Shown here: one piece after another, positions 21,901 to 40,956 of the stretch
Layout of the letters: each line of letters opens with the position of its first letter
Position numbering within the stretch: the stretch's first letter is position 1
IMG/VR virus record: IMGVR_UViG_3300025727_000603
Location: 1-64,000 of that record
Reading direction: 5' to 3' (one strand)
DNA: 64,000 bases
Source of the DNA: a virus
Made by a program: the position numbers and the translations under genes
The notes under the pieces: generated by a model
Seen by the model: the letters and a program-made list of their open reading frames with translations, nothing else
The model's database searches: none
What the model was told of the DNA's origin: nothing

Positions 21901-24900
21901 CACATCAACAATTGCCTGGACTGATGAAGATAATAACACAGTTGCAGATAATATTAAAGTCTTAGATAATGGCTCGTCTGATAATAAATTTCCTATAGGT
22001 ACTGGTGTAGCACAGCCTGCAACCATTACACAAGATATTTCTTACTCACAGGCTCAAAAGTTAGGTATCCTATTTGATTCAGATAAAGCTTACGCACAGG
22101 ATGAAACTACTATAATATTTGCTAGTGGTAAATCGATAGCTTATAAGAGAAATGGCTCAAGTCTAAACACCAAGAATCTCCACCCAACCGAGCCACAGTA
22201 TTGGGATCAAGTCCCAGGACAGGGGGTGCTGATTAATGTTACGGCCTCAAACACATTGTTTAAAAATACACCAAGTTCAACAGGAGTAGGTGCTAAATTT
22301 AAAATTAAAGACTCGGGTTCGGGTATTGTTTCTGGTGAATATGTAGCGGATGTAGAACAAGTAAATGTATATAATATATTACCCATACCTCATGGGTCCA
22401 CTACGGTACTTCTAAGGGAGTATACTCCTTATAATGAGAATTTGATGGGGACTAATGAAAAAGTGTCTTTACTGGTTAATCCAAATGCAACAGCAGATGA
22501 AGAGGGTAATTTCGACTGGACTTTCAATTTAAAGGTAATAGTGAACTACCTGTATTCAGGAGCTTCAGGAGCGTCTAAAAGTGTCGGATTTAATATTAAT
22601 GGTATTTCCATGTCAGCTTTTAAGGATATACTTAAAGATGATCTGGGTCTGGACAGCATTCCGGCATTATCCGGTACTTATCCTAATGCTAGTTATAATA
22701 CTTATGCTTTTAAAGAAGTCGCAAATAATCAATCAGATACTTTAACTACCTGGCTTAATGATCTTGTAGTAGATAGATGGCGATCTATACAAGCTTGGGC
22801 AATTTTATTAACGGGCTCAGTAGACCTTTCTGACTCCTCTAATTTAACTGGTGACGGTGGATATATTGACCCTACTCTTTCAAACGGAGTGGCTGGAGAT
22901 ATTCTTAACATACACATAGCTAACGTTAATGATCCATCAACTCTACAGCTTTCAAGTACAGGTACCTCGATATCTATGTCCACGGACAGTAACAGTAGTA
23001 AGATAGGCATTTTTCTAGAAGATACTTGGAGCACAGCTGCGCACGGTACAACTGATCTTATATACTGGAATCTATCACCAGATGGACCTTACGAGTCTAT
23101 ACTGACTGATTATTCTGGAACTCCCGATATAATGACACTATGGGCCGGCGGTACCGATGTTCGTATTGTTCTTAATGTATGTCAGGGTACACCATCAGCT
23201 GATAATGGATGGGACAATGCAGATGCTGAGCATGAAGCAGGTAAAGTTAAAATTACCGTTAAATCAGACGCTTCACTAGAAGGAGCTGCACTTCTTAATG
23301 AAATCCAAACGAATGCGTGGTCTAATGTTATGGGGTATAATGTGGTACCATTAGATAGTGACACTAACAAATGGTCATTTGACATTAATCAGTGGAAACA
23401 TGTAAACGGTGGGGATACACATACTGTTACACTAAAACCACCCGAAGCAGTGACCGTTGACTTAGCTGAAGTGGGTATATGGGTTGATCCATATCTTGAA
23501 CTCGGAAAGATGGAACAAGATCTTGGTAATGAATCGAATCCTTCTGATAATAACATGCTCCAACCAGTAAAATGGAGATGGGGTTATGACAAATCCTACA
23601 ATCCTACAATTAATTATACTCAGATTGATGGAGATTTTGATGATAGCTTTACTAGTTTGATTCCTAACGGTTATTATTATAATTGTATGATACCAGCTTA
23701 TAATGTAGTTCCTTTATATCAGGCGTCTGACATTACACCATTTTTTAATACTCATGCTCAACATTCCAATAGTGTCTATACCGGTCCTACTGGTATACCA
23801 ATTAATGTACCTATTACAAAGTCTACCTTAGGTTTAGGAAAAAAAGTTAATAATATCGATACAGAAGCTAATTGGTTAAAAGGACTGCTTAAATATAGTT
23901 TTAATCAGCAGCTGCAGCACTACACATTTACAAAATACGTCCCTTCTTCAACTAGGGTAGTTACTCAAGAAGATTTTACAAATGGAGCTGAATATATTGA
24001 AAAGACCTATTCTGCAACAAATGCAACAACTGAAACAACGACTACAATTCCAATTACTGATTGGCAGAATGGAGTAACACGAACTGTACAGTCATATGAG
24101 TACGACTATAGTCCAGCATCAATTTCAGAAGGAGACATTGTATATTACCAAGATACTGATGAGAAAACGTTTTCGTTTTATGAATGTATAACTTCTCATG
24201 GTGATACCTCAATAGACAATAATTTAATTGACGGTCTCTTGAATGAGAATACGCACTGGCAAACAGTTTATGACTATAATATAGTACTTAATTTCCTAAA
24301 TTATAATTTAATTACATATACAGTAGTACCAGTAGAAGGTAAATTTCTAGCCTATGATAAGCTTAAAGTAAGAAAAGCACCTACTTCCTCTAACCTTTCA
24401 TATGAATCTAAGGAAGTGAATGTACAAAGATTGAATTACAGTTTCTCTTCCGAAGGTTCGTTGGCAACTCCAACCTTTAGTGGATTATCACCAACATCAG
24501 AGAAACTATTACAGCTCGAATATAATGGACAATTGGATACGGGTGGAAGTAACTGGAATACTGAACGATTTAGTAACGATGCAATTGCAGCCAATGATAT
24601 CTTTGCTAATCCTTCTATAATTAAAATACAATTAAAAAATTCACATCTTCCAAGTCATCATAGATTAAGAAAGATAGTTGCATCTCCGGGTGTACCTGAT
24701 TACAATATTATAATTAATGATAAAGTAACAGTATACGCAGATGCAGTTGAAGATACAGAAATGCCTACTCTCTATTATCAGGAAGGTATGTTTTTCTTAG
24801 AATCACCTGATAACTCTAATAAGTTAACTTCGGAGAATAGAATAGACTTTTTACCTCCACAGTCACCATACACGGCCAAAACTACCGGACTCCCTGCTGA

Positions 24901-27900
24901 TTATAACTCTTGCTTTTCGCTTCATACAAATGGGGAATCAGCATCGTCGGCTTTTAACACGCAAACAAATAGAGCTGCATTTACAGGAGATGCATATGGT
25001 ATAGCTAAAAATTTAAAAAATAACAACAGTTCAGACTTTCTTATCAATGAAGGAGATAATCGTATTCCGGATCTTCATGAATCAGGAACTATAAAACTAA
25101 GCCCATTAGAAGGAATAGAGGGTAATATAACACGTGATGGCTCTATTGTTCACTCAATAAATAGACCAAATGATGTAATGATAAATGCTGTAAATTATAC
25201 TAAAGAAGACTGTAGACTATATGATAACGGTCTTAGAGTAAATCTTCATCCTTATATAACTAACTTTGCGTTAAGGTCGTTTTTTCTTGAACTAAAGACT
25301 TCTAGTTTGATTAATCACGTTGAAGATTGGCGAGCAAATCACGCCGACATTGCCGGATGGGAGGGCCTAGTAGATAATGAATATTATAGATATAATATAG
25401 ACTCTGAATACTATAACAATAAGATTACCGGTATACTTGGTAGTCTGGCAGCAAAAATTATTTTCCCTAAACTAGATGATAATGTAGACTCAGGTACAAT
25501 AAACCACTATCGTTCTGATGAGGGTAGTATTATTGGTGATGTAGCTATTGAAGAAAATTCTGAACAGACTAATATTGAATGGATGGCAGTAAGTTCAAAT
25601 TTTGTTATTCCTGATGCTATATTAAGTTGTACAGGGACAATGCAATTTTGGGATAAAGCGGATTCTACGGCACCGGATACAATAACAACTGTTGACGGTT
25701 ATTGGCCTCGTAAAGGGGACAATTATTCGAATATACATTCCGGTCGGCAAATTGAGTCATCTAAATACTTGTTTGATTGGAATAAACTAAAAGACGATGC
25801 GGCAAACATTAATATTAAATGGAATACTCATCAATACATAGAAGGGTTATACAATCAACCGGGTTTGTTACCTAATGATAGAAAATTATTAAGACGTGAA
25901 TTCCCTTATAATTATAACATATTACAGAATATTAACTCGACAACTAATCCGGTTGATTATAGTCAAACTAGATATTCTGAAGTTGATAATTTGGATAAGC
26001 TTATGTTATCTGCTTACTCAACTTTAGGATCTGGTGTATACGGACCACCGACGACCGGCAGCGGCAGAGCATGGACATTCGGAGATCAAGCATCAACGAC
26101 ATCAGTTGTGTTTAATGATATAGTAAAAATTGACCCATTAACATCTTGTACAAGCATATCTTATGTTAATGGGCCCCTCTCGATGGTTACTAGCTCTGAT
26201 GGATCGGAAACTAGCATTAGAATAAAGATACCCCATAATAAGATTCATAAATGGGTACACATGGCGTTGGCAAATCAATCAATAGCCAACAATACAGTAA
26301 CAACTGCCTTTGATGCTAATAATAGTTCAATTCTACATAGACAATTACATAATCCTGAAATGTTTAATTTTAATTCATTCTTTACATTTGAAAGTTCAAC
26401 GGAGTCATCAACAATAACCTCAAAACTTATATATCTTAATGATGGTATGCGCGCGAGTGATGGTCTCAGTTCAGAATTTAATGTAATCTCTGGAACTGCC
26501 ACTATTGGGGTTGAATATCGAATTTGGTATCCTAATGACTCTACAGGAGTCAGTGGTTTCAAAACATATGATTACCCAGACTGGTATGAGAATTCAGGTT
26601 GGGGAGTGGATGATAACATTATTGTAGAGTTCTTAATACCATCAACACCAGGTGCTGATTTTATAAATTCATTAGTATCAGTTTCATTTACCCATTATCA
26701 GAATCTTCATGTAGTTGCCCCCACTAGCACCGGTGCTAGTATTGCGGATTCCAGTAGCCAAGCTTGTGGATTTGGAGCACGGAGTATTATTTCATCTTCA
26801 ACTGCGAGTACTAACACCACCCTCACCGATCAATCAGATTACCATGGTAAATTCAAAGATGGTAACGGACTCTCATGGACAGATGAAAAATATAAACTAG
26901 AAGAGTATAGACTATCCGATAATGCAACTGACTCTGATATTAAGGATAATACTACCACTTTATTATACTTACCAGTAGACAGTGGTGCAATCCTTAAAAC
27001 AATTAATCAATTTTCTGGAGTATCAACCTTAAAATTTACTGAGATTGGTAGTAACCCATATGAGTACTTTACAGGTATTATTACTAATATACAACTATCT
27101 CCCGCTAAAACAGGGTTTGGGTATACAACTGCTACGGCTGTAGATTCTGGTGGTGCACAAATTCAAATAAAACCAAATTGGGGTAACATGATAAGTAGTG
27201 GTACCGCAGCTCCTAAAATATCATTTACTGCGTCCAACACGGGTGCTGTATCTATATTTGAAGTATATAAACCTGATAACGCTTCATCCGGCAATATTGT
27301 TTCAGGTCAGGATTCTATGGGTTATTGGGTAGGACAAAATTACAATATAGGGGAATTTGATGATCGACATTTAAGCGTTAATTGGCATTCAATTTATGAT
27401 GTTAAGAATGCTGCCAACACAGGACTAAAATTTACTACTGATTCTGCAACTGAAAAGTCTTTACCATCTTTACAGTTTAGCGCAGACGGGACTAATGGTA
27501 AAATATCTAAAATTACAAGGAACACTCCGGCGAATGGAGTGGATAGTAGCTTCTATGTATGGAATCAGTCAGCTAGTAATAGTTCAGGGACATTTGGTCT
27601 TGGTATATGGGGTCTAACACTCAGTCTGGATGATAATACAAGTAAAACAATCAGGAATTCCGGTGTAACTAATCCCGATTTTGAAGTTGGAGAAAGCTCA
27701 ATTGGAGCATCTATAAGTGCTGTGCATATTTTAAAAACAGGATACGGATATGCTGGTAATATTAGTACCAGCTCAGCACTCACTCTGAACTCGTACATGG
27801 ATTCTATAGCACTACAAAAGATACTTAGTTTCGAAGATGCAGTTGCACAGGGAATGATATTGAATAGTAGTACTATTACTAATGTGACCTGGGATGCTGG

Positions 27901-28948
27901 AACGTGGTTAAATACCATTGGTTCGTATGATTTAGTAGATATTCAGTTTATATCAGATGTTGCACCAATAGTTAAATCTAATGTGGCAGCTCTGAATAAT
28001 GTAGAATTAGAACTCTTATATGATGGAGGGCAGGACGCCGTTTTTACAAATAATGGTTCTTCGTTCTTTGAAGCTATAGATGGTAATAGACATATTACAT
28101 TTGTTAGCTATAGCGATAGTGGGTACAGTGATGATCGAATTAGGAATATTCGAGACAATATTAGTAATATAGCTCAGGACTCACGAACAACTATGGAGAC
28201 AAACTATCTCGGATGGTACAGTGACCCAGAGAAAGCTGGTCTGCAAGACACAGCTAGATTGTTTAGTTGGGGTTCCGAAAATTCCGTTTACAATAATGTA
28301 ACAATTAAGTCTATTTTTCAGAACGATTTATCCTTTCTTCAGTTAGTTGATAATGTAAGTGGTGTATTAGATTCAAACTCTGATGTATGGTTAGAAGCTT
28401 CAGGAAATGCTTACTCTTCAAATAATATTACTCTTACTCCAATTGGAGGTAATAGTACGTCGGATCATACTGCGTTAGCAGAGCACCTAAAAGATTTTAT
28501 AACACTTGATTTTAATTATATTGATAACACAGACGATGTGAATAATTTATCTACTCGGTTTATAGCTGAACTTCATCCTTCTAAAGGTACAGCATTAAAC
28601 AAATATGTTACAAGGAATATTAAGTTAAAGAACTCTTCTAATTTATTAAATATATTTTTAGATGTTAACAGACCTTTTGGGACAGATATTGAGGTATATT
28701 ACAGAACACATACAGAAGATGATATGATTGATGAGTCAAATTGGATTCTTGGAGAACCTGTAGGTGGTACAGACATACCATTTAATGATAATCCTAATGT
28801 TTTTACAGAGACTGAGTATTATATAGATAATGTTATTTCCGCTAATAATATGTTCACAACATTTGCTATAAAAATAGTATTTAAATCCGCTAATAGTTCT
28901 GTTATACCTCAAGTTAGAGACTTAAGAGCAATTGCACTAAATGTATAG
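15941..28948 (+). CDS. giant virion structural protein, DUF4815/VrlC-like, with ~2400-aa internal insertion
   Basis: N-terminus NFNVPPYFDDF...LFRP..AVQARELTQLQS.LQNQ, APGAHR, ARRTFDESGNY.V.PF, RYTMRDIG, GF.VDSF and DPLAQSF; C-terminus KYVT...V.DLRAIAL. Confidence 0.85.
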   Translation: MSINFNVPPYFDDFESVSEFDGSDGLSPKDKYHKLLFRPSYAVQARELTQLQSVLQNQITNLGHHLFVEGSLVIPGDVSFSNDIDYIKVEMGSIPDVNADINYIMSNLDDSDSTGLKGKYLVRAIDLDLTGNITLPEPTLSAKILKVVPAIGTAPAVLYIQYYAASAEKTVDTGVNVNVNKFRPSDELKVIDKMPSVYGSNSNSNPSPTSLTLQFHQAVLKIPSELKQSAIGKASLAFVEKGVYFIKGNFVQVQNSTLIVAPFSTSASADIGFRIKESVISSAEDPTLSDNATGSPNFAAPGAHRYEIKTELIALDINTDIEGTDDDFLLLCRVDESAVKWKVKRTDYNIIEDEFARRTFDESGNYTVRPFHIDITEDRDNVDLFQAQLEPSKAYVQGYEIETLSSISVPIEKARRAEDTDAKESVTVSIGVGNYILVSPRDFSSLLSSGIVPPIDTFARVDLKNFDNSTIGYTRIRSVTRVSPGYTHDDQGVIIRDTSLDIYKVYLFDVFLNEFQNFSSVASLLYSSNNHTFDVKLVSTPAVIKETDKNSLVYKLPYDRVKTCSIAKLNTTEEADYNYRFRTIKMFSPKHGNGNFINATVNNTETESFGAFNQSDWILEKFIQSAGTTIIPLTSAMVGAAVSGDMTSIAIDLSSWSGVVGGGKYRLTAPVDSTAIHRTKEVRDIESERWVYDQYVTADSTAYNSAHHYDVITLAKNDVFKINFVKEYIGDGDLGETGTAIYIQNNPEQFKDITEHYILDTGMTDNYYDNSKLRLRSDSDYIPSNDIFCSYKYFHHYPGDFFSIDSYPPEMYDDIPVFNSDNQGKLIELRSSIDFRQSKDIESNVGTCPHPNSKFQTDLEYYLPRKDIIVVDAKGDFRCIKGVSSLTPTLPETPSNSMVLYNLHLQAYTFTPSEIQYEMIDNKRYTMRDIGKIQKRVDNLEYYTSLSLLESEASNKIVVDSEGFLRSKAGFVVDSFKNHSIGNTLSPEYRCAIDRKRRTIRPIFHENSIGLQYVPPTSEINPAVSSHVQKTGDLITLPWSPVELFSQGKASSTININPYDVFTWTGSVKLSPSQDDWKDTTHVPELIVNQTGIYDAMMSIIDATDALGTDWNEWETTFFGSESTSWVSASGRNWQTTTTETNTTEDQARDGILTVNNPFVNYTELGERVIEIGFAPFIRGRRVSFSAERLKPNTIIYPFIDNVNISEYAIRDNVFVDYSSSDDEIFNQMVENYGAHPFDTERLSPMFYPDKQDSVTGKGTHPYRYDANSLETIAWKLYGLNDAPTYDNMSNMYPNTELKTDAAGRLTGSFWFPNDDGLRFKTGTRTFRLSDSPISVNRDEETTFAQTQYHAKGLLETKENLTIATKLPMLSQTQVFDERTIYNTSRTNSTRWWDPLAQSFLIDIDKQPQGAFITSIDLYFAKISETIPVVLQIREVIVGLPSAIIVPHSTVTLYPSDINVDSNLGQAATKFEFESPVYLGSGKSYAFVIFADTIDYEVWMARTQEIDVVTDAAISKNVFAGVLFKSQNGSTWSPDHNADLKFAIHRAKYDISRPGNLVLVNKELPLKRLRNHPFTTTETNELKVYHKNHGFVESSSRQSYVSFSGIERNHPTESPETANLYGIDANKINAISEHPYYDGSNLVSPTGAGVFPVFDVTQDAYSVRLGIDENNSDGRTQFGIGGGKTIEASENYAFSTWYHHAAIVNLPTTNITWGVKTTNLGTIGANNTTVYRKSTNYKAYVPNTNIHEPFPQVITSRENQLHNVDVHDNLPNKSFEVMGQLTSNSDYVSPSVDIERCSVVCIQNRIGNFTGYGELTSVNFNPTTPELTGLGRFNAGLYKFAIDSNNEAKGGILNLSIEGKGPILSIDHFISASNKTLFETDKDYLMIIENPSSSDATNENVGVMKLKINKSDSGAVVFNDIKLSSASTPIAEYVPGVYDFTILDNKSRFGEATPDASGPGPYGYVNFNSGSMDVEYAAKIRVRVDAATSTIAWTDEDNNTVADNIKVLDNGSSDNKFPIGTGVAQPATITQDISYSQAQKLGILFDSDKAYAQDETTIIFASGKSIAYKRNGSSLNTKNLHPTEPQYWDQVPGQGVLINVTASNTLFKNTPSSTGVGAKFKIKDSGSGIVSGEYVADVEQVNVYNILPIPHGSTTVLLREYTPYNENLMGTNEKVSLLVNPNATADEEGNFDWTFNLKVIVNYLYSGASGASKSVGFNINGISMSAFKDILKDDLGLDSIPALSGTYPNASYNTYAFKEVANNQSDTLTTWLNDLVVDRWRSIQAWAILLTGSVDLSDSSNLTGDGGYIDPTLSNGVAGDILNIHIANVNDPSTLQLSSTGTSISMSTDSNSSKIGIFLEDTWSTAAHGTTDLIYWNLSPDGPYESILTDYSGTPDIMTLWAGGTDVRIVLNVCQGTPSADNGWDNADAEHEAGKVKITVKSDASLEGAALLNEIQTNAWSNVMGYNVVPLDSDTNKWSFDINQWKHVNGGDTHTVTLKPPEAVTVDLAEVGIWVDPYLELGKMEQDLGNESNPSDNNMLQPVKWRWGYDKSYNPTINYTQIDGDFDDSFTSLIPNGYYYNCMIPAYNVVPLYQASDITPFFNTHAQHSNSVYTGPTGIPINVPITKSTLGLGKKVNNIDTEANWLKGLLKYSFNQQLQHYTFTKYVPSSTRVVTQEDFTNGAEYIEKTYSATNATTETTTTIPITDWQNGVTRTVQSYEYDYSPASISEGDIVYYQDTDEKTFSFYECITSHGDTSIDNNLIDGLLNENTHWQTVYDYNIVLNFLNYNLITYTVVPVEGKFLAYDKLKVRKAPTSSNLSYESKEVNVQRLNYSFSSEGSLATPTFSGLSPTSEKLLQLEYNGQLDTGGSNWNTERFSNDAIAANDIFANPSIIKIQLKNSHLPSHHRLRKIVASPGVPDYNIIINDKVTVYADAVEDTEMPTLYYQEGMFFLESPDNSNKLTSENRIDFLPPQSPYTAKTTGLPADYNSCFSLHTNGESASSAFNTQTNRAAFTGDAYGIAKNLKNNNSSDFLINEGDNRIPDLHESGTIKLSPLEGIEGNITRDGSIVHSINRPNDVMINAVNYTKEDCRLYDNGLRVNLHPYITNFALRSFFLELKTSSLINHVEDWRANHADIAGWEGLVDNEYYRYNIDSEYYNNKITGILGSLAAKIIFPKLDDNVDSGTINHYRSDEGSIIGDVAIEENSEQTNIEWMAVSSNFVIPDAILSCTGTMQFWDKADSTAPDTITTVDGYWPRKGDNYSNIHSGRQIESSKYLFDWNKLKDDAANINIKWNTHQYIEGLYNQPGLLPNDRKLLRREFPYNYNILQNINSTTNPVDYSQTRYSEVDNLDKLMLSAYSTLGSGVYGPPTTGSGRAWTFGDQASTTSVVFNDIVKIDPLTSCTSISYVNGPLSMVTSSDGSETSIRIKIPHNKIHKWVHMALANQSIANNTVTTAFDANNSSILHRQLHNPEMFNFNSFFTFESSTESSTITSKLIYLNDGMRASDGLSSEFNVISGTATIGVEYRIWYPNDSTGVSGFKTYDYPDWYENSGWGVDDNIIVEFLIPSTPGADFINSLVSVSFTHYQNLHVVAPTSTGASIADSSSQACGFGARSIISSSTASTNTTLTDQSDYHGKFKDGNGLSWTDEKYKLEEYRLSDNATDSDIKDNTTTLLYLPVDSGAILKTINQFSGVSTLKFTEIGSNPYEYFTGIITNIQLSPAKTGFGYTTATAVDSGGAQIQIKPNWGNMISSGTAAPKISFTASNTGAVSIFEVYKPDNASSGNIVSGQDSMGYWVGQNYNIGEFDDRHLSVNWHSIYDVKNAANTGLKFTTDSATEKSLPSLQFSADGTNGKISKITRNTPANGVDSSFYVWNQSASNSSGTFGLGIWGLTLSLDDNTSKTIRNSGVTNPDFEVGESSIGASISAVHILKTGYGYAGNISTSSALTLNSYMDSIALQKILSFEDAVAQGMILNSSTITNVTWDAGTWLNTIGSYDLVDIQFISDVAPIVKSNVAALNNVELELLYDGGQDAVFTNNGSSFFEAIDGNRHITFVSYSDSGYSDDRIRNIRDNISNIAQDSRTTMETNYLGWYSDPEKAGLQDTARLFSWGSENSVYNNVTIKSIFQNDLSFLQLVDNVSGVLDSNSDVWLEASGNAYSSNNITLTPIGGNSTSDHTALAEHLKDFITLDFNYIDNTDDVNNLSTRFIAELHPSKGTALNKYVTRNIKLKNSSNLLNIFLDVNRPFGTDIEVYYRTHTEDDMIDESNWILGEPVGGTDIPFNDNPNVFTETEYYIDNVISANNMFTTFAIKIVFKSANSSVIPQVRDLRAIALNV

Positions 28949-32100: not shown

Positions 32101-33715
32101 TATGTTAGGAAACACCAAGATGATGAGTTTATCCGATGTAGTAATTGATACTCATATCAATAAAGACTCAACGTATATCAAAAAAGTAGTTAAAGAACTT
32201 GTATATGACTCTTTAAATCCAGCTCATTGGGATTCAAGCGTTACAAACAAATATCATGACGGAATATCGGTCACTGATGCTCATAGTGGGATGGCTTCAA
32301 ATAAATACTATCGTGCTATGAAAATGGAACTTTTAGATGGGTTTGTATCTGGTGATACTCTGACATTTCATTACCATGACGGAGAGAATTTAAAAACTAT
32401 TTCCATTTCGGTTCCGGATAACGTATCAACTGGTTTAAATACAAAGGGTATATATCCGGCCGGAGTAATATCACAGGATCAATACAACGATAATCCTGAA
32501 TGGAAAAAAACAGCACGGTTTGGTGCTTCTAAATGGTTATCTCAATATCTTAAAGCAGAGTCTACCCCTGAACTCGCTACCTTTAACAGCTATTGGGATG
32601 TAACCTTCGCAACATACTATGACGGTAATGCTGATGTTGTTCCTGTTATAGTATTTACAGAGAAAAACCCTCTTTCTGTCAGTAATGAAACAAATTCACC
32701 TAACAATCAGTCACAATTGTGGAAACTTGGTCTGGAGTCTACTAACGCTGGTACTATTGCCTCTGGAAATTTTGACAATAGCAATACTGACAAAGTAGCA
32801 TATAATGAGAAATGGCACAGAGATGGCAACTACAATGACGAATTTAATCAATTTGATATATCTAAGGCAAACGATAGCAGTGGAATCTATACCAAAAATA
32901 AAACACCTCAGTATGCAGACAATTATATAACATCAATAGTAAATGTGCAAATTTCTGAACCTGAAATTATTAAAGATGATTTATCAGATACTCCTAAATT
33001 ATCTTTAAATATAGCAGGACAGACATCTACTAACCACATAGGGTCTTTCACACCATCAATAAGTGTTAATTCAAACGGCGTGGCAGAATTAACAATTACA
33101 ACTAGTGAGGATTTGACACCTTGGAAGGACGAGGGATACCTTAAATCGGCACCTAATAATACATACTCGGCAAGCGCTACCGGTCATATGACTAAAAGTA
33201 CAACCCAATGGGCCAGTGGAATTTTTAGCACAGATGCCGAACCTGGTACATCAACTGACTTCAAAGCAGGTAAAATTGTTTCTCGTAATGATTCGGGTGA
33301 CTTCTATGCTAATATTATGAATGGTACAGCAACTAAAGCCCGATATGCAGATTTAGCGGAAAACTATGTTGCTGATAAACAATATGAAGTTGGTACAGTA
33401 TTATCCTTAGGTGGTGAATTTGAGGTTACAGAATCAGATAGGATAATGGATTCTAGAATCGTAGGAGTCGTTTCTGAAAATCCTGCATACTTAATGAATT
33501 CATATTGTACAGGTGAATTTATAGCTACTGTAGCACTAAGAGGAAGAGTACCTGTTAAAGTAGAAGGACCAGTTGATAAAGGTGACATTATTATATCATC
33601 TGGAAGAGGTACAGGAGTTTCTAATAATAACCCTTCATTTGGTTCTATTATAGGAAAGGCTGTAGTATCTAAAACTTCTGAAGGTACCGAGTTAATAGAG
33701 GTAGTTATCACCTAA
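29177..33715 (+). CDS. tail fibre-like structural protein with C-terminal intramolecular-chaperone-like domain
   Basis: N-terminal SDTFNEWRLKTNEI and LTT.A.T...AINE motifs; C-terminal A.YADLAENY.AD..YEVGTV...GG..EVT...GVVSENPAYLMN...VAL.GRVPVKV.G...KGD...IIGKA. Confidence 0.7.
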   Translation: MVHILDKSTRINVTESDTFNEWRLKTNEIGSFIGDKHHIARYSTINYDWIPLWTDTELLNGNDENRKHPDTKVPYRKALVNIKIQGMHALESTSTEDWVAMQTETTQSIIKQEIDFGGMLTEENIRVTIKTHQPGAVNDDDRYYYGDVGTDYPYGYADNDILTIRGSSIGGVDGINDLKVKVAVTASHVNEGVTFKYISNVKISGQPINESEYGSDYITLALTKLPPASIYNELHQIRSDLAGEQENPNFIPFTKLTTNAQTIALAINEVNAKIQGTQGNLTLLKTIDDELQSIPWSKYYKQYTIDGNGNTTITDGYKIDDIVYVDPTIINDIGDTLYFKSITEYNVDNPVSRDNDGNFDRSYNLTQQGQGNLVENGVPVDSSITWFQVDSTVYSSMSLNKSLNIVNTSLGITSNNTLASLKNNHPDYTGPQDTIYHSLRNIDSYIGNYLGLKSQVYNRYVNPYRTVTLDGVATNNIDYSSIGTGDPGTIKLPTGMLLSQAFTDPNDLEYNFLPVDADKNGLYAQWTTQVTEPYQLYTKSYHPDTNVFNGFVAAADDDIVVALTKLRLRVDMLTEEIYLTKRDAGDSSAAWQWAQRITKSDQFENNFSGMHGIINILKGLEDLVSPITGDSLDRGKLSRSGFKTDYADTAGWDQSIPTGSKQEQSLTNNIYEDYDSSHVEGPLWAGSTDSDDKPLGIIAGSITRISADGGYKPQYSSDLLILRTAGVTPVDGTSHNNIDFPSTVTGTSKSADIRTLYPERIVINNGSETQVAIGYTETDRTDTNFWTNNDNTFIDHSSNPSWVWETSSGLNLLQQTATDQPMNLDVKGDIRATNKIYIGPSDNIRSIDDLYLSSGIREKEASENAPVQNIFTKPIFREGLVVHSEKPMNDWYTFTEDGRIQPDAQLLQREIEDVVGAMVTDKISATGTPSTLNMESGLNVRYDSLKADTNSGLRSPHQATLNFEVHSPDILITGDMLGNTKMMSLSDVVIDTHINKDSTYIKKVVKELVYDSLNPAHWDSSVTNKYHDGISVTDAHSGMASNKYYRAMKMELLDGFVSGDTLTFHYHDGENLKTISISVPDNVSTGLNTKGIYPAGVISQDQYNDNPEWKKTARFGASKWLSQYLKAESTPELATFNSYWDVTFATYYDGNADVVPVIVFTEKNPLSVSNETNSPNNQSQLWKLGLESTNAGTIASGNFDNSNTDKVAYNEKWHRDGNYNDEFNQFDISKANDSSGIYTKNKTPQYADNYITSIVNVQISEPEIIKDDLSDTPKLSLNIAGQTSTNHIGSFTPSISVNSNGVAELTITTSEDLTPWKDEGYLKSAPNNTYSASATGHMTKSTTQWASGIFSTDAEPGTSTDFKAGKIVSRNDSGDFYANIMNGTATKARYADLAENYVADKQYEVGTVLSLGGEFEVTESDRIMDSRIVGVVSENPAYLMNSYCTGEFIATVALRGRVPVKVEGPVDKGDIIISSGRGTGVSNNNPSFGSIIGKAVVSKTSEGTELIEVVIT

Positions 33716-34461
33716 TGATCGGTATTCTTGGTTATGGTTTTGTTGGGAAAGCAGTTGATAAAGGGTTCACAAAAACAGATAAAATAATATCGGACCCTTT
33801 ATATAATGACGTATCTATTGAAGATATGATGGATACAGAATGTATATTTGTATGCCTTCCAACACCTACAGTAAACGGTAAAATAGAAGCAACAATACTA
33901 TTAAATGCACTCAAGCATCTAGAAGAACTCGAGTACTCTGGTCTTATAATAATAAAATCTACTGTTCTTCCAGACCTAATTAAAGGGTACTCTAATAATG
34001 TAGTATGTGTACCGGAATTCTTATCTAGAGCAACAGCTCACCATGATTTCATTAACCCTCATGTATTAATAATAGGATCAAATTCTATTGTTACATCACA
34101 CCATACTTTAGCTATATTTAAGAAATATTCTGAGGTTTCCACAAAGAATGTACATCTAACAGATATAAAAACAGCTTGTATATTAAAGTATACTATGAAT
34201 ACCTTTAATGCCCTAAAAATAACATATTTAAACGAGATATATAAAGTATGTGGGATAGAGGGTATAGATTACAAAGAAATAGTATCTGTATTAGAGCGAG
34301 TACCGAGAATGGGTACAGGTCTTTTTGATGTTCCTGGTCCAGATGGTAAGTATGGATTTGGTGGTCCGTGTCTTCCTAAAGATGCTGAGTCTTTTGCCTC
34401 TGCATACTCTATGGATTTAGTAAAAGGTATATTAGAGGTTAATTCGTTATTAAGACATTAA
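33715..34461 (+). CDS. ugd: UDP-glucose/GDP-mannose dehydrogenase family protein (lacks C-terminal UDP-binding domain)
   Basis: GILGYGFVG Rossmann motif, FVCLPTP, IKSTV.P, PEFL, KY..N.F.ALKI...NE and catalytic GFGGPCLPKD. Confidence 0.85.
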   Translation: MIGILGYGFVGKAVDKGFTKTDKIISDPLYNDVSIEDMMDTECIFVCLPTPTVNGKIEATILLNALKHLEELEYSGLIIIKSTVLPDLIKGYSNNVVCVPEFLSRATAHHDFINPHVLIIGSNSIVTSHHTLAIFKKYSEVSTKNVHLTDIKTACILKYTMNTFNALKITYLNEIYKVCGIEGIDYKEIVSVLERVPRMGTGLFDVPGPDGKYGFGGPCLPKDAESFASAYSMDLVKGILEVNSLLRH

Positions 34462-35438
34462 ATGTTCTATTATCAGAAGGGTGTAATCTAAACTGCTCAT
34501 ATTGTGGAATGGATAAATGGTCTAAAACCACTATATCTCAAGATTCTGTAATAAATAGATTTAAAGAACTTAGACTTGAGTACCCTAATGATCGTATACG
34601 AATAGACTTTTTTGGAGGTGAACCTCTTCTCCAAATGAAGATGGTTAAGTCAATTATATCAAAGATGAAGAAAGTTGATGATAATTATACCTTAGCTATG
34701 CCTACTAATGGGATATCTCTAACACCTGGAATACTAGATTACCTAAAAAAAGAAAAAGTCTCTGTATCTCTCTCATTCGATGGCTTATGGCAAAACGATA
34801 GGAGACCTATTAGAGATTCCAATCTATCTTCTTTAAATGTACTGTACGCTAAACGAAAATTGTTTTCTGGATTAAAATGTCATTCTATGATATCCGGATC
34901 TGACTATAATTTACTAGAAAATCATTTATATATAACTCAAAATTTTGGGATGAATCCTGAACTAACATTAGTTAGGGATAGAGGGACATGGACACCAGAA
35001 TCAGTTAAACTTCTTCAGATCGGTATTAACGAAATTTATGAGTGGTACAAAAATAATCTCTCTGAAGATATGCCTAATTTTATATTATTCTGGCTTCGCG
35101 ATATATTAAGATATCATTATAAAGGATTTACAGTTGAAGGATGTGGTGTAGGAAGAGATCTTCATGCATTAACAGAGACTGGAGAGTCCGTTACATGTGA
35201 CAGATTTGCTGGGGATAAAGAAGCAGTTGAGAAGATAAATGAGTTTTACTCTATGCCTGAATGCTCAACTTGTCGTGTAAAGAATTATTGTCATAAAGGT
35301 TGTATGTATGAACAAATTAAGTCAAATGGGCCAATCCCTGAACTTTGTGATATATATAAGTATTGTTATGATAAAACAAAAGAAATACTACCCCTGATAC
35401 CTAAAGATATAATAAGGAGAGAATTGAATGATTCATGA
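34449..35438 (+). CDS. radical SAM/SPASM protein 1 (peptide-maturase type); probable ATT start
   Basis: The CNLNCSYC motif is at 34482-34505, in frame but upstream of ATG 34509. Also FFGGEPLL, TNG, SFDG, CGVG...C and C..C.....C.KGC...C (SPASM). Confidence 0.85.
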   Translation: MKTLNVLLSEGCNLNCSYCGMDKWSKTTISQDSVINRFKELRLEYPNDRIRIDFFGGEPLLQMKMVKSIISKMKKVDDNYTLAMPTNGISLTPGILDYLKKEKVSVSLSFDGLWQNDRRPIRDSNLSSLNVLYAKRKLFSGLKCHSMISGSDYNLLENHLYITQNFGMNPELTLVRDRGTWTPESVKLLQIGINEIYEWYKNNLSEDMPNFILFWLRDILRYHYKGFTVEGCGVGRDLHALTETGESVTCDRFAGDKEAVEKINEFYSMPECSTCRVKNYCHKGCMYEQIKSNGPIPELCDIYKYCYDKTKEILPLIPKDIIRRELNDS

Positions 35439-35658
35439 TATTACTGATATTAATCAGATTAATACAAGATTATTGAAGACTGTTACACACCTGATAGATG
35501 CGTCTAAATATCTTTCGGATATACCTGAATTTCAAGAAGAATCCTATAAAATTGCTCTTCTGGCAAAATGTTTTATTGATGTAGTCGAACCTCAAAAAGA
35601 AAAAATTACAGAAGAAACAATTAATTCTATACTAGATGAGATATTAAATGCTCAATAA
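35428..35658 (+). CDS. small helical hypothetical protein between the two SPASM enzymes
   Basis: 76-aa ORF with SD (aggag), overlapping both neighbours. Confidence 0.6.
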   Translation: MIHDITDINQINTRLLKTVTHLIDASKYLSDIPEFQEESYKIALLAKCFIDVVEPQKEKITEETINSILDEILNAQ

Positions 35659-36784
35659 TAAAAGACAACAATTTACGTTTGAAATTACAACTACTGCTCT
35701 CTGTAATATGAATTGTACATATTGCTTTGAAGGTCTAAAAACAGATAAGCGTACTTTAAACAATGTACAGGTTTCTGTATTAAAGTCTAAAATAGAGGAA
35801 ATATTAAAATCCAATTGGTTTTTAAGAGATTATGGAGTCCTTAATATATCATTTTGGGGTGGAGAACCTACATTAAATGGACCATTAATTGTTGATATGA
35901 TGAATACATTCGAGCTAAATGATTCTGTAACCTATCATATATATACTAATGGACTAGATAGAAAGAAACTTGATTATGTACTTGATTCAGTATCTACAGA
36001 TAAACTTGCAATTCAGGTATCTTGGGATGGTGATGTCATTAATAAAAAGTATAGAGTTCAGGGAGTAGATAAAGATACAACTGCACGAGTACTTAATAAT
36101 TTAGAGTATCTAATAGAAAGGGGTATAAACGTCTCAATGAAAGCTACAATACCTCTAGAGTCTATGGACGATATTGAAGAAACATGGGATTCATACAAAA
36201 CTTTATATGACAAATTAGGGTCTAGAGCTAATATATCTTATGCCCCTACAATAGATTATGTAAATGAATTACCTGAGGAGACCCAAGAAGCTTCAATAGC
36301 TACATTTAGATCAGCTATGATTAGAGTAGCAAAAAAGGAATTAGAATTTTATAAAGAGCATAATCATTTTTTATGCTCTTGGTTTGACGGTAATGAGCAG
36401 AAAGTACATTGTTCCTCGGGTGCTAATATGGTTGCTATAGATGTAACGGGTAAGTCTTATGCGTGTCATGGTTCATTATATTCTCCTAATAAAGAATCAA
36501 TGGGTTCAGGATCTATAACAGATGCTGAGTGGGTTAAGAATTTAGGTTCTGAAACTAAAAAATATAAAAAGGCTATTAAAACTGTACCTGAAACATGTGT
36601 AGATTGTGTTGCAACAACTTGTATGATTTGCCCTGTATCTTCCTTAGATAATTCAAAAAAATCAGATTTTATGGATAGGTGGACTGATAGATATATAAAT
36701 AATATGTGTGGGTATTTTAAAACATTTGGTGAAATAGACCGAGCGGTTGTAACCAAAATAAACAGAGAAAGAGAAGAGGCATAG
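35648..36784 (+). CDS. radical SAM/SPASM protein 2 (peptide-maturase type)
   Basis: CNMNCTYC, FWGGEPTL, YTNG, QVSWDG, CSSG...YACHG and CVDCVATTCMIC...C. Confidence 0.9.
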   Translation: MLNNKRQQFTFEITTTALCNMNCTYCFEGLKTDKRTLNNVQVSVLKSKIEEILKSNWFLRDYGVLNISFWGGEPTLNGPLIVDMMNTFELNDSVTYHIYTNGLDRKKLDYVLDSVSTDKLAIQVSWDGDVINKKYRVQGVDKDTTARVLNNLEYLIERGINVSMKATIPLESMDDIEETWDSYKTLYDKLGSRANISYAPTIDYVNELPEETQEASIATFRSAMIRVAKKELEFYKEHNHFLCSWFDGNEQKVHCSSGANMVAIDVTGKSYACHGSLYSPNKESMGSGSITDAEWVKNLGSETKKYKKAIKTVPETCVDCVATTCMICPVSSLDNSKKSDFMDRWTDRYINNMCGYFKTFGEIDRAVVTKINREREEA

Positions 36785-36787
36785 ACT

Positions 36788-37576
36788 ATGACAAATACAT
36801 ACGGGACATCAACCTTTATACCAGAAGATAAGTGGCATACAGCTTCGACCGGTGGAAACGAATACAAATCAGTCAGTTCTACTTGTAGCGGTCATAGAGC
36901 TAATAATTCCCACAATAATGTAGACTGGAACCTATTTGGGACTGACACAATAATCAGCATAGGTGATTATAATACTATATACGATGCTGTTCAGACAGAA
37001 CTAGAAGAATGGTTAGCGTTTAAAAACTACAGTGGTACAAAGACATATTCGGATCTAAAAGGTTATAGAAATGTAGGTTCCAGAAAAACAACAGATAGTG
37101 TAATAGACGATCAAGATCTTGTCGCTATCCATTCTATATTAGAGGCTATACTTGGAGAAAACGGAGCAAAACATACAAACACTAATTATGGAAATAGCGG
37201 TCAAGCTAACCGAATAGGTACGGGATGGACTAACAGCTCAGGTACTGCTCCTACATCAACAAAAACAAGCGCTGAGAAAGTTAAAATCACTGATGTTACC
37301 TCTACTGCTATTAGAAAAGGTGCTGTTAAAGGGGCGGGCATGATTGAAAAATCGTATAGTTCAGAATTTGGTGGTAAGGTAGAAGGTACGCTTATTCAAA
37401 ACGAATTCTACAATCCAACTGGTGCAGCTGAGTTTGATGGAAAAACGAGATGGGCAGACAATTCCATTGAGGAAAAATTTAACCGATGTCGTAGTAATTG
37501 TATTTGCGATTCTGATTGTGCCTGTAATGCTGTTTGTAATTGTAACAATAACTGTGATTGTAATTATACTCAATAG
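36788..37576 (+). CDS. Cys-rich-tail protein, candidate radical SAM substrate / virion component
   Basis: S/T/G/N-rich 262-aa protein ending CRSNCICDSDCACNAVCNCNNNCDCNYTQ (9 Cys in 29 aa); SD gagg present. Confidence 0.7.
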   Translation: MTNTYGTSTFIPEDKWHTASTGGNEYKSVSSTCSGHRANNSHNNVDWNLFGTDTIISIGDYNTIYDAVQTELEEWLAFKNYSGTKTYSDLKGYRNVGSRKTTDSVIDDQDLVAIHSILEAILGENGAKHTNTNYGNSGQANRIGTGWTNSSGTAPTSTKTSAEKVKITDVTSTAIRKGAVKGAGMIEKSYSSEFGGKVEGTLIQNEFYNPTGAAEFDGKTRWADNSIEEKFNRCRSNCICDSDCACNAVCNCNNNCDCNYTQ

Positions 37577-37588
37577 GAGATGAAATAA

Positions 37589-38203
37589 ATGATGATATAT
37601 AATATGGCACTAGTGACAGATAAAGGAACACATTTTGAGATAAATGGGGTTACAACTAACGTAGCCTCTAATATAAAAAACAAAGAAGAGCACTATCTTA
37701 ATCTTTCTTCAAAAGCAGCAGAAATTATTAAGGAAGCATTAAACTCTGGTAATAATAGAATTAATGTCTATAAACCATTAAAGTCTATGGAAGTTTTACC
37801 GGGAGAAGTTATTATAGAGGATATAGATCCAGAAGATATCAGAAATGTTAAATCGTCAGAGATTAAAAGAATCAGGGTCCTAATAACACCCGAACTAGCT
37901 TCCATTTCAGGTATAGCACTCTATTCATGGATTATGCTTAATAATGAACTAAATTCTAAAGGATACTTTATATATGATGGTAATAGAGAAGAAGTATACC
38001 TAAGTATATTAGAAACTGGTGATGAAGAGCTTATTAACAAGCTGGAAGAATATTTAAATTATAAAGATGAGATTGCTAGAGTAGCTCAATTAAATTCTAA
38101 ATTTTCTAATATTATTAAAGAAATAATGACTCTTACAGATAAAGATGAGATTATTGAGAAAGCTAACAAATTTATAGAAAATTATATGAAGTTAAATGAT
38201 TAA
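37589..38203 (+). CDS. hypothetical protein (possible partner/chaperone of the Cys-rich protein)
   Basis: 204-aa ORF with strong SD (aggag); no catalytic motif recognised. Confidence 0.55.
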   Translation: MMIYNMALVTDKGTHFEINGVTTNVASNIKNKEEHYLNLSSKAAEIIKEALNSGNNRINVYKPLKSMEVLPGEVIIEDIDPEDIRNVKSSEIKRIRVLITPELASISGIALYSWIMLNNELNSKGYFIYDGNREEVYLSILETGDEELINKLEEYLNYKDEIARVAQLNSKFSNIIKEIMTLTDKDEIIEKANKFIENYMKLND

Positions 38204-38976: not shown

Positions 38977-39929
38977 GTAAAATACTACAATTACCTAAAG
39001 AATATGAATTATGGTTGACTTATTCATGGAGTAATGACAACCACGGCATATGTGGTCATACTTTTGAAGTCATTGATTACTACCATATATTAAAAAACCA
39101 TTTTAAAGTTGGTATATTATTAGCTGAAGATATAGATATGAATATGTTTGTTCAGGCTATTCAAGAGAAATACGATTTTAATACTGATGAACTTAAAGAT
39201 ATAAAGCGAAATACTCTTTTTAAAAAGAGACCTAGACTAGTATCAGGATCTAATATTATCTTTACTGATGGTGGTGTATTATCAACAAAAGATAGTACAT
39301 TACTATTTGATAATATCTTTCATATGGCTTGTGGTGATAAAGAAATAAAAGATAATACAAAAGAAAATGTGTGGATACTTCAAGATGATAGAGTTTATGA
39401 CCCAGTAACTCTTAATGGTATTAATTACAAAAAGAAGATACTATTTTCTAGATTAAAACGACTTAAACGACCTGCATTATTCCCTGGCTGGTTAAGAACT
39501 ATTATGCTATATTCTACTAAGAATTGTCGTAATATTCCAGAAGCTCAAATTAAAAAAATATCTAATAAGTATAAAGGATATCATATAATGGTGCTTACTA
39601 ACTCAGAAAATAAAGGTAAAGACTCTGAGTGGATTAAATATTATGAAGTACCTACAAAGGATCTATTTAATCGGTTTATTATGTATTATTATACACCTAT
39701 AGAAAGGAAGCATGATTGTTCTCCTAGGTTTATAGCTGAGTGTAGGTATTATAATAAACAAGTTGTATACGATTCTAAAATAAACGATGAGTATCTTCAG
39801 ACGGACTTAGGGTTAAAGTATAGAATGCAGGATATTGAAGAGGACTTTGAGTCTTTATACTTAGAGGAAAATGATGACATAATTAATATTATTAAGAATA
39901 TTATATATAATGAGCCCAATAAACTATAA
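38973..39929 (+). CDS. hypothetical protein, possible degenerate GT-B glycosyltransferase; distant paralog of the previous ORF
   Basis: GICGHTFEVIDYY and DCSPRFIAECRYYNK.V.Y motifs parallel those of 38206-38976. Confidence 0.4.
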   Translation: MSKILQLPKEYELWLTYSWSNDNHGICGHTFEVIDYYHILKNHFKVGILLAEDIDMNMFVQAIQEKYDFNTDELKDIKRNTLFKKRPRLVSGSNIIFTDGGVLSTKDSTLLFDNIFHMACGDKEIKDNTKENVWILQDDRVYDPVTLNGINYKKKILFSRLKRLKRPALFPGWLRTIMLYSTKNCRNIPEAQIKKISNKYKGYHIMVLTNSENKGKDSEWIKYYEVPTKDLFNRFIMYYYTPIERKHDCSPRFIAECRYYNKQVVYDSKINDEYLQTDLGLKYRMQDIEEDFESLYLEENDDIINIIKNIIYNEPNKL

Positions 39930-40956
39930 CATTGTATCACATCATAAGATTCAGCCTGAAAATAAAGACAAACTATGTTCAAGAGCTAAGTTAGACACAG
40001 GTACTCATTGTAATTATGACTGTGAGTTCTGCTATTACGGAGAACAACTCCATATTCGTACTGATACTGATGTTATAAAGAAACGTATTGATTATCTCTG
40101 GGATACAGGTATGGAAGAAATAGACTTCTCTGGAGGGGAATCTTCTATACATAAAGACTTTTTTGAGCTAATACAATATACCAAAGATAAAGGTTTCTCT
40201 AACATATCTACACTATCTAATGGACACAAATTCTCCAAGATTGACTTTATGCGCAAGGCCTATGATGCTGGCCTAACAGAAATATTATTTTCTGTTCACG
40301 GCGCTAATGGAAGTATACATGATAAAATAGTAAGACGATCAGGAGCATTTAATCGTATTATTAAAGCTATTAATCTCTGTAGAGAAGTAGGTATTAAAGT
40401 TCGTATCAATACTACTGTTACTATGGAAAACTTTACTGCTTTATCAGAATTCTCTACACTAATTCAAAGTCTCGATGCTGATGTATTTGAGGTTAACTAC
40501 TTACCCCTAAATCATTGGGATGACGCTAAGACACAGATACCATTAGATTATAATGTAGTATGTACTGAAATAAAAAAGTCTATTGACATACTTAAATCAG
40601 CAGTTAAAATAATTAATGTTAGATATACTCCATACTGTTACATGGGAGGGTATGAGAAATATGTATGCTCTACATATCAACATATATGGGATGTCTATGA
40701 TTGGAATATCGGGGTATATGACTATTCTGTTGATCCTCAGGTATATAAAAAAGATCCTCTAAAACATCTACTTAAAGTAGCTAAAGAAAATAGAAATCAA
40801 ACATATATGAAACCTAAATCATGTATGGGATGTAAGTATTTTTTTATATGTGATGGTATTGAGACTGAAAATAACTCTACTCTACCCTTAGCAATAAAAG
40901 GTGAATTGATATATAATCCTATACATTATCGTAAAGGATATTATGAATCTATTTGA
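39910..40956 (+). CDS. radical SAM protein 3 with C-terminal Cys cluster
   Basis: CNYDCEFC, FSGGES, SNG, FSVHG...HD, PYCY and CMGCKYFFICDG. Confidence 0.9.
   Translation: MSPINYNIVSHHKIQPENKDKLCSRAKLDTGTHCNYDCEFCYYGEQLHIRTDTDVIKKRIDYLWDTGMEEIDFSGGESSIHKDFFELIQYTKDKGFSNISTLSNGHKFSKIDFMRKAYDAGLTEILFSVHGANGSIHDKIVRRSGAFNRIIKAINLCREVGIKVRINTTVTMENFTALSEFSTLIQSLDADVFEVNYLPLNHWDDAKTQIPLDYNVVCTEIKKSIDILKSAVKIINVRYTPYCYMGGYEKYVCSTYQHIWDVYDWNIGVYDYSVDPQVYKKDPLKHLLKVAKENRNQTYMKPKSCMGCKYFFICDGIETENNSTLPLAIKGELIYNPIHYRKGYYESI

Follow-up and report, generated by a model that had tools for sequence, protein, structure and literature searches.

The 64,000-nucleotide stretch of DNA analysed here and referred to as the window (positions 1 to 64,000 of the IMG/VR virus record IMGVR_UViG_3300025727_000603) is the region of a T4-like myovirus in which the baseplate and fibre genes lie. 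The gene under study encodes a 262-residue protein (P0001, hereafter the Cys-ladder protein), lies directly behind two putative radical S-adenosylmethionine (radical-SAM) enzymes of the SPASM type and may encode their substrate (Table 1). An original prediction made from the sequence alone had described this open reading frame (ORF) as ending in cysteines at alternating spacings of two and four, with one extra cysteine elsewhere, and translation bears this out. The tail cysteines are C234, C238, C240, C244, C246, C250, C252, C256 and C258, giving a spacing of 4,2,4,2,4,2,4,2 with Asn/Asp-rich spacers within the last 29 residues, and the only cysteine outside the tail is C33. The gap of 3 nt separating the stop codon of the second SPASM gene from the start of the Cys-ladder gene had also been read correctly, and the sequence GAGG is found 8 nt 5' of that start. 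At the six-frame cysteine frequency of the window (0.026) the eight-Cys pattern would be expected to occur 3e-8 times in the window, and it is seen once.

Table 1. The Cys-ladder gene, its conserved elements and the genes of the surrounding module, in window coordinates.
Feature	Position	Strand	Basis and remarks
Fibre-like protein, 1512 aa	29177..33715	+	Related phages keep the last ~140 residues, directly upstream of the module (BLASTP, residues ~1330-1512)
First SPASM radical-SAM enzyme	34443..35438	+	CxxxCxxC and full 7-Cys SPASM pattern; homologue in nearly all related loci
Acidic helical protein between both enzymes, 76 aa	35428..35658	+	18 homologues aligned; N12, L22, A25, K27 and I72 invariant
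Second SPASM radical-SAM enzyme	35648..36784	+	Pfam Radical_SAM and Fer4_12; adjoins the Cys-ladder gene
Cys-ladder gene (P0001), 262 aa	36788..37576	+	Stop-free frame; homologues
N-terminal T-C-S-G-H-R motif, C33 near-invariant	36881..36898	+	Alignments A1 and A2
Family-conserved core, C238 to Y260	37499..37567	+	Four Cys-x-Cys pairs, hexad register, invariant Tyr end; columns of A1 and A2
Partner protein, 204 aa; next downstream (in some loci past a separate S74 ORF or one extra ORF)	37589..38203	+	phrog_25260; 34 homologues
Two conserved module proteins, 256 and 318 aa	38206..39929	+	Nearly all loci have homologues, order unchanged
Third radical-SAM enzyme, conserved core module	39910..40956	+	Pfam Radical_SAM (3e-20), phrog_27238; position kept in loci

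A word-indexed search returned one close relative of the Cys-ladder protein, which is 79% identical over its full length and identical in the last 29 residues. Exhaustive HMMER comparison with 1.8 billion cluster representatives added 25 distant clusters of 74-272 aa, and scans combining the tail motif with tblastn provided loci from viral (15), metagenomic (32) and bacterial-genome (4) sources. Two alignments were built (A1 and A2), and the A2 profile matches the window gene at 1.2e-38. The marks common to the family, the protein of the window included, are a TCxGHR motif, a G-x-x-I helix unit in triplicate and a hexad block of eight Cys that closes with N/H-Y. The helix unit has the consensus G-x-x-I-x-x-x-[D/W]-[I/Y]-x-x-L and occurs three times per protein in A2, and a helix ending Y-N-x-x-R is a further feature of both alignments. 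Three loose helix motifs that had been picked out beforehand turn out to be real, as they match three of these consensus units and AlphaFold2 places helices right after each of them. The Cys block follows the consensus C-I-C-N-S-D-C-x-C-N-A-V-C-x-C-H-N-D-C-G-C-N-Y. Six of its cysteines and Y260 are invariant in A1 and A2, and C238, C246, D243 and N247 are each more than 90% conserved. Of the nine tail cysteines counted earlier, eight (C238-C258) are conserved by the family, and C234 occurs only in this phage and the relative with 79% identity. At L048:24-854 a 276-aa relative consists mostly of ~30 consecutive Cys-x-Cys hexads, on a contig that ends before any upstream neighbour. The Cys-ladder proteins form an unnamed family, which is defined here by A1 and A2 and comprises 25 distant clusters and some 45 loci. 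The protein of the window matches no family in Pfam, PHROGs or NCBIfam, and the same three collections assigned none of 39 members to a known precursor family. PF27846 (rSAM target Cxxx repeat) was a weak feature-space neighbour only (score 0.83), the leads from the ESM Atlas were all sub-threshold and a profile search of A1 against PDB sequences gave nothing significant. Megablast and tblastn with the window and with the Cys-ladder protein gave no match in cultured phages, and no paper on the family or its module was found in the literature.

The loci used to examine gene linkage were fished by the tail motif alone and, as no enzyme query was involved, the identity of the neighbouring genes is an independent observation. 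Each of the 40 unique members for which upstream flank is available (40 of 40) has a homologue of the second enzyme (29-62% identical) that ends no more than 60 nt before the start of the Cys-ladder gene, and 36 of 43 members have a homologue of the 204-aa partner within ~1 kb downstream. Homologues unlinked to radical-SAM genes, which had been named in advance as evidence that would refute the prediction, were looked for by these scans, and none was found among the members with enough flank. The linkage is seen in T4-like viral contigs and, with the same gene order, in chromosomes of Halobacteriovorax, Peredibacter and a Bdellovibrionales metagenome-assembled genome. The bacterial loci are flanked by ordinary cellular genes, for example those for EPSP synthase and a multihaem cytochrome, and 5 of 301 sampled Bdellovibrionota genomes carry the family. 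The whole module is present in chromosomes of predatory Bdellovibrionota (L049, L050, L051, L052 and L017).

The reverse search, made with a 26-sequence alignment of the enzyme, gave 64 viral loci, 28 of them cleanly called. In 21 of these 28 the gene after the enzyme encodes a protein of 155-409 aa whose tail has periodic Cys, and the type of repeat varies by enzyme clade, with CxCxxx hexads, C-x-C-N-C-N-Y units (up to 35 Cys) or (CHSN)n. The adjacency thus survives when the repeat changes in type, as would be expected if enzyme and substrate co-evolve, and in both directions it holds within an enzyme clade of roughly at least 30% identity. Sister tails encoded by the gene after the enzyme were recorded at L078, L082, L083, L084, L093, L096, L113, L115, L116 and L120; the form C-N-T-N...C-T-C-N-C..N-Y was also seen, and several of these tails again end Y-S-D-x-R-L-K, the stub of a Peptidase_S74 domain considered further below.

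Both upstream enzymes contain CxxxCxxC, C-x(9-15)-G-x4-C, CxxCx(4-5)Cx(2-3)C and a last Cys, which together constitute a complete SPASM pattern. The top NCBIfam match of both is the PapB ranthipeptide maturase (NF047865), at 75-77 bits against a cut-off of 340 (77 bits for the second enzyme). Other matches, likewise below cut-off, are to the SCIFF maturase TIGR03974 (36-59 bits for the two enzymes against 425), QhpD TIGR03906 (50.7 and 53.3 bits against 453), TIGR04463 (31.6 bits for the second enzyme against 525), CcpM and CefB, and there are weak matches to the mycofactocin and PqqE maturases. Among PDB entries the thioether synthase CteB (5WGG/5WHY) is the top match of both enzymes, the first matching 5WGG at 4.5e-13, and the matches of the second are to CteB or anSME. 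Because the alignment to CteB begins only at its residue ~95-106, both enzymes are without a RiPP (ribosomally synthesised and post-translationally modified peptide) recognition element (RRE). The only cultured-phage match of the enzyme is in the Campylobacter CP220 group, at 27% identity. In the first enzyme gene the CxxxCxxC motif lies 5' of the first ATG (34509), and the interval from the in-frame TAA at 34440 to the motif contains neither ATG nor GTG nor TTG. A near-identical contig (L001) gives the same 309-codon call for this gene, and one marine DNA run has two changes here, T>C at 34448 and T>C at 34440, the latter of which would make CAA of the TAA.

With a little more confidence than doubt, we favour the reading that the Cys-ladder protein is a fibre-module protein with a thioether-stapled tail, the substrate of a conserved maturation module in the manner of CrpA and CrpC. 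The protein would be made in the host cytoplasm and one or both of the upstream enzymes would cross-link its C-terminal block, in which four Cys-x-Cys pairs lead up to Tyr260. The links would be thioethers of the ranthionine type, running from Cys sulphur to side-chain carbons of neighbouring residues, with the conserved Asn and Asp beside the tail cysteines as obvious candidate acceptors. The core from C238 to Y260 is presumed to be both the site of modification and the mature C-terminus. The outcome would be a knot, insensitive to redox conditions and resistant to proteases, that terminates a small fibre-module protein, probably oligomeric, with a part in host contact, and we infer that thioethers give a phage protein permanent staples where the reducing cytoplasm bars disulfides. 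The central claim of the original prediction, a stapled precursor of protein size, is partly supported by the two-way linkage, the SPASM motifs, the position of CteB and PapB as nearest matches and the CrpA/CrpC precedent, and it is weakened by enzyme scores far below the family cut-offs.

The SPASM enzyme CrpC of Methanococcus voltae puts ranthionine-type thioethers on CrpA, a protein-sized Cys-repeat substrate (PMC13692751, 2026). The two systems are alike in the size of the substrate, in its C-terminal periodic Cys repeat and in the SPASM radical-SAM gene alongside. CrpC, however, belongs to TIGR04463 and has an RRE, whereas the window enzymes fall outside TIGR04463 and lack one; the CrpA repeat is of 17 residues with C-x-x-Q/D, in contrast to CxCxxx; and CrpA/CrpC is archaeal and cellular, with neither S74 nor a phage fibre context. 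The nearest curated and solved kin of both enzymes are found in PapA/PapB (freyrasin) and in the SCIFF pair CteA/CteB, in which the substrate gene also adjoins that of the enzyme and thioethers join Cys to the side chain of Asp, Asn or Thr. Substrates of ranthipeptide enzymes are ~40-50 aa long with leaders recognised by an RRE, whereas here there are 262 residues, no RRE and two tandem enzymes. As regards assignment to the ranthipeptides, the window has a SPASM radical-SAM gene beside a Cys-rich candidate substrate, and it lacks a curated family score and a short leader-bearing precursor with an RRE. QhpC/QhpD, whose maturase is in the match lists of both enzymes, resembles the present system in that a SPASM enzyme makes Cys-Asp/Glu thioethers in a protein subunit, but there are no dehydrogenase partners here, the repeat and context differ and the TIGR03906 cut-off is not reached.

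Several observations weigh against thioether stapling. With scores of 50-77 bits, far below the curated cut-offs (340-525), the enzymes fall outside every characterised maturase family. An RRE is missing in both, and the 76-aa protein encoded between them is all-helical and not RRE-like. The S74 chaperone of the relatives implies a folded trimer, whereas enzymes of this kind normally act on unfolded peptides, and CxC ladders are classic metal ligands. One Cys of a pair is absent in L013-L015, L046, L047 and L051. A distant enzyme clade (26-29% identical) is without a Cys-tail neighbour, its tandem enzymes being followed by a Cys-free small ORF, and the CP220 phages also have no such neighbour beside their enzyme homologue. 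Finally, the tail of the Cys-ladder protein is modelled by AlphaFold2 with low confidence only. The rivals that invoke metal binding, disulfides or a scaffold are ranked lower, mainly because they leave the two-way linkage unexplained.

Peptidase_S74, a domain found in endosialidases and tail fibres, is an intramolecular chaperone that cleaves itself. The sequence after the conserved Tyr was compared in 43 unique members from the loci and takes three forms. In ~25 members the Tyr is followed by S-D-x-R-L-K and a 70-100-aa domain that Pfam identifies as Peptidase_S74 and that begins at the Ser directly past the Tyr. Some 13 members, among them the protein of the window, end at the Tyr or 1-2 residues beyond it; the latter protein ends T-Q and has no Pfam match, so PF13884 is absent from it, and no PF13884 match was found in the 79-kb record of this phage (~35% complete genome). 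Five members have a 12-residue stub only, the gene ending ...R-L-K-x-x-I-x-Y-C-stop. In the four stub forms that were checked, the remainder of S74 is encoded by an ORF of its own in a different frame, with a conserved T-A-Y T-G-Y T-A-A junction. These ORFs (~95 aa, no ATG) are at L017:6516-6854, L024:915-1256, L033:6138-6460 and L051:6096-6419, in loci that are themselves divergent, and the junction could reflect a split chaperone, re-initiation or a programmed frameshift. Endosialidases are cut just before the Ser, and for this reason all three forms would end at the Tyr. In most relatives the chaperone after the Cys block would remove itself, and the gene of this phage stops two residues past the Tyr, at the would-be cleavage point, without an S74 domain.

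That the invariant Y260 stands exactly at the natural end or the S74 cleavage point would also suit a scaffold for a small product, in which a cofactor or natural product is built on C-terminal residues including the Tyr and then released, S74 merely exposing the C-terminus. Mycofactocin and PqqE maturases are among the weak NCBIfam matches, and the gene island of the window includes a family 2 glycosyltransferase (GT2), as mycofactocin clusters do. We nevertheless regard a scaffold as very improbable: scans with Pfam, PHROG and NCBIfam recognised no product-releasing peptidase in the module, the top enzyme matches are thioether synthases and the body of 150-400 aa, conserved in architecture, evolves fast like a surface protein.

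The natural variants of the family, with S74 fused, split or absent, three repeat types and from 4 to ~30 repeats, amount to ready-made experiments on the purpose of the chaperone domain. No literature report was found of S74 proteins with Cys ladders or radical-SAM partners. Structural proteins of Brucella phages, which weakly matched an S74-bearing member, were rejected as kin, as they have S74 but no Cys tail; the S74 domain is probably behind this match. At the bacterial locus L017 an opposite-strand neighbour combines a type IV pilin-like N-terminal methylation motif with Peptidase_S74.

S74 chaperones are known from trimeric fibres and spikes, and the tip of the T4 long tail fibre (gp37) holds iron at His-x-His sites. 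The Cys-ladder protein is reminiscent of this tip in having i/i+2 pairs of metal-ligand type at what would be a distal fibre end, although the residues are Cys and not His and there is no sequence relation. A needle may therefore be envisaged in which the Cys-x-Cys pairs of three chains meet at the trimer axis and hold a column of metal ions, or else a metallothionein-like cluster, with the radical-SAM enzymes acting on sugars or on another protein, perhaps in the service of the sugar enzymes of the island (UDP-glucose dehydrogenase and GT2). The i/i+2 spacing puts both cysteines on one face of a strand, and the expansion of the repeats to ~30 hexads in L048 is as seen in rod-like repeats. We think such a needle unlikely. 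It accounts neither for the CteB/PapB-like SPASM gene found upstream in 40 of 40 members nor for a tail type that varies by enzyme clade; six thiolates round one ion would be unusual chemistry; and Pfam and NCBIfam matched no metal-binding family to the protein of the window, for which they gave no family at all, or, S74 aside, to its relatives. A homotrimer prediction with three copies of the protein and alignment A2 scored 0.00 and carries no weight either way.

The AlphaFold2 monomer of the Cys-ladder protein, made with 39 sequences, has a mean pLDDT (predicted local distance difference test score) of 57. It shows a helical core of moderate confidence (58-122 and 222-236, with helices at 58-76, 108-122 and 222-236) and a disordered S/T/G/N-rich insert at 126-205, and a Foldseek comparison of the model with PDB and BFVD gave nothing at E <= 0.001. 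The absence of a confident solenoid in the tail bears on a further rival, according to which the ladder is reduced in the cell and oxidises in oxic seawater to a mini beta-helix stapled by disulfides. The regular Cys spacing, the Asn/Asp/Ser/Thr spacers and the expandable repeat resemble those of cysteine-laddered insect antifreeze proteins, and the phage is marine, since marine metagenomes contain the stretch. We hold this solenoid to be improbable, as it too fails to explain the two-way enzyme linkage, and the family is also present in bacterial chromosomes with the same enzymes.

To return to thioether stapling, the conserved order of the proposed maturation module is enzyme 1, small helical protein, enzyme 2, Cys-ladder protein, 204-aa protein, 256-aa-like protein, 318-aa-like protein, enzyme 3 and more radical-SAM genes. 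The gene island in the window has ~8 radical-SAM genes, a UDP-glucose dehydrogenase, the GT2, transketolase-like genes and a halogenase. Published work notes, without an explanation, that host-recognition clusters of marine T4-like phages carry radical-SAM cassettes (PMC7029224). The 76-aa protein matched nothing in Pfam, PHROG or NCBIfam, and the 256-aa and 318-aa proteins have no Pfam match. The 204-aa partner is modelled by AlphaFold2 (pLDDT 87) as a small alpha/beta domain with a helical bundle, for which Foldseek and a wide VIA search returned generic helical matches only (Z <= 9) and a profile search against PDB gave no match. Upstream of the module, the C-terminal part of the 1512-aa protein (33170-33715, the last ~140-180 residues, from ~R-Y-A-D-L-A-E-N-Y) is 32-52% identical in ~20 phage loci, where it stands at the end of large proteins, otherwise unrelated, just upstream of the module; this part has no Pfam match. 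A single ORF of 4335 codons occupies 15941-28948 in the upstream structural region, and parts of it are conserved in related phage loci.

Comparison of the window with L001 showed the flanking enzymes to be 96-99.5% identical, with a ratio of nonsynonymous to synonymous substitution (dN/dS) of 0.08-0.25. The Cys-ladder gene is 79% identical with a dN/dS of 0.83, and the 1512-aa fibre gene has a dN/dS of 0.80. The last 29 codons of the Cys-ladder gene are DNA-identical to L001. An argument for purifying selection on the tail from synonymous changes was set aside, as this identity fits a recombination boundary equally well. To judge from the sequence comparison, the protein's body evolves in the manner of a host-interaction cassette and the tail would belong to the conserved part. 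A particle or host-contact protein is suggested by this fibre-like divergence, by the position in a fibre module and by S74 in relatives, and the last of these would give indirect support to the fibre tip proposed in the original prediction.

A fuller version of the stapling reading, in which the phage staples a host-recognition protein of its particle with its own radical-SAM enzymes, Bdellovibrionota use the protein at the surface or in adhesion and S74 is a self-removing follower, is possible and we hold it tentatively, with more doubt than confidence. Enzymatic thioether stapling has so far been seen in small peptides, in the QhpC subunit and, since 2026, in one archaeal protein. If the reading is true, this chemistry would extend to virus particles, and the Cys-ladder protein would be the first structural protein of a phage whose maturation resembles that of a modified-peptide natural product. 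The radical-SAM cassettes noted in host-recognition clusters of marine T4-like phages (PMC7029224) would then have an explanation, phage fibres and predatory bacteria would be seen to share a device, and a compact tag of 23 residues, with enzymes dedicated to it, would become available for making redox-proof, cross-linked protein ends. New here are the form without a chaperone in this phage, the form with a split chaperone, the reverse linkage with repeats of other types, the copies in Bdellovibrionota and the pattern of divergence.

Environmental libraries contain further traces of the locus. Two marine metatranscriptome libraries hold contigs 100% identical to the second enzyme gene, at 36608-36836 and 35736-36016; such contigs cover short parts of the stretch only, and the parts left uncovered carry no meaning. 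The first of these, a 229-nt contig, crosses the junction of the enzyme and Cys-ladder genes and is a weak hint of co-transcription, with DNA carry-over in the library as a possible source. In a marine DNA run a second allele of the body was observed at 36965-37048, with 6 differences over 84 bases and divergence beyond them, and this fits the coexistence in nature of variants of the Cys-ladder gene.

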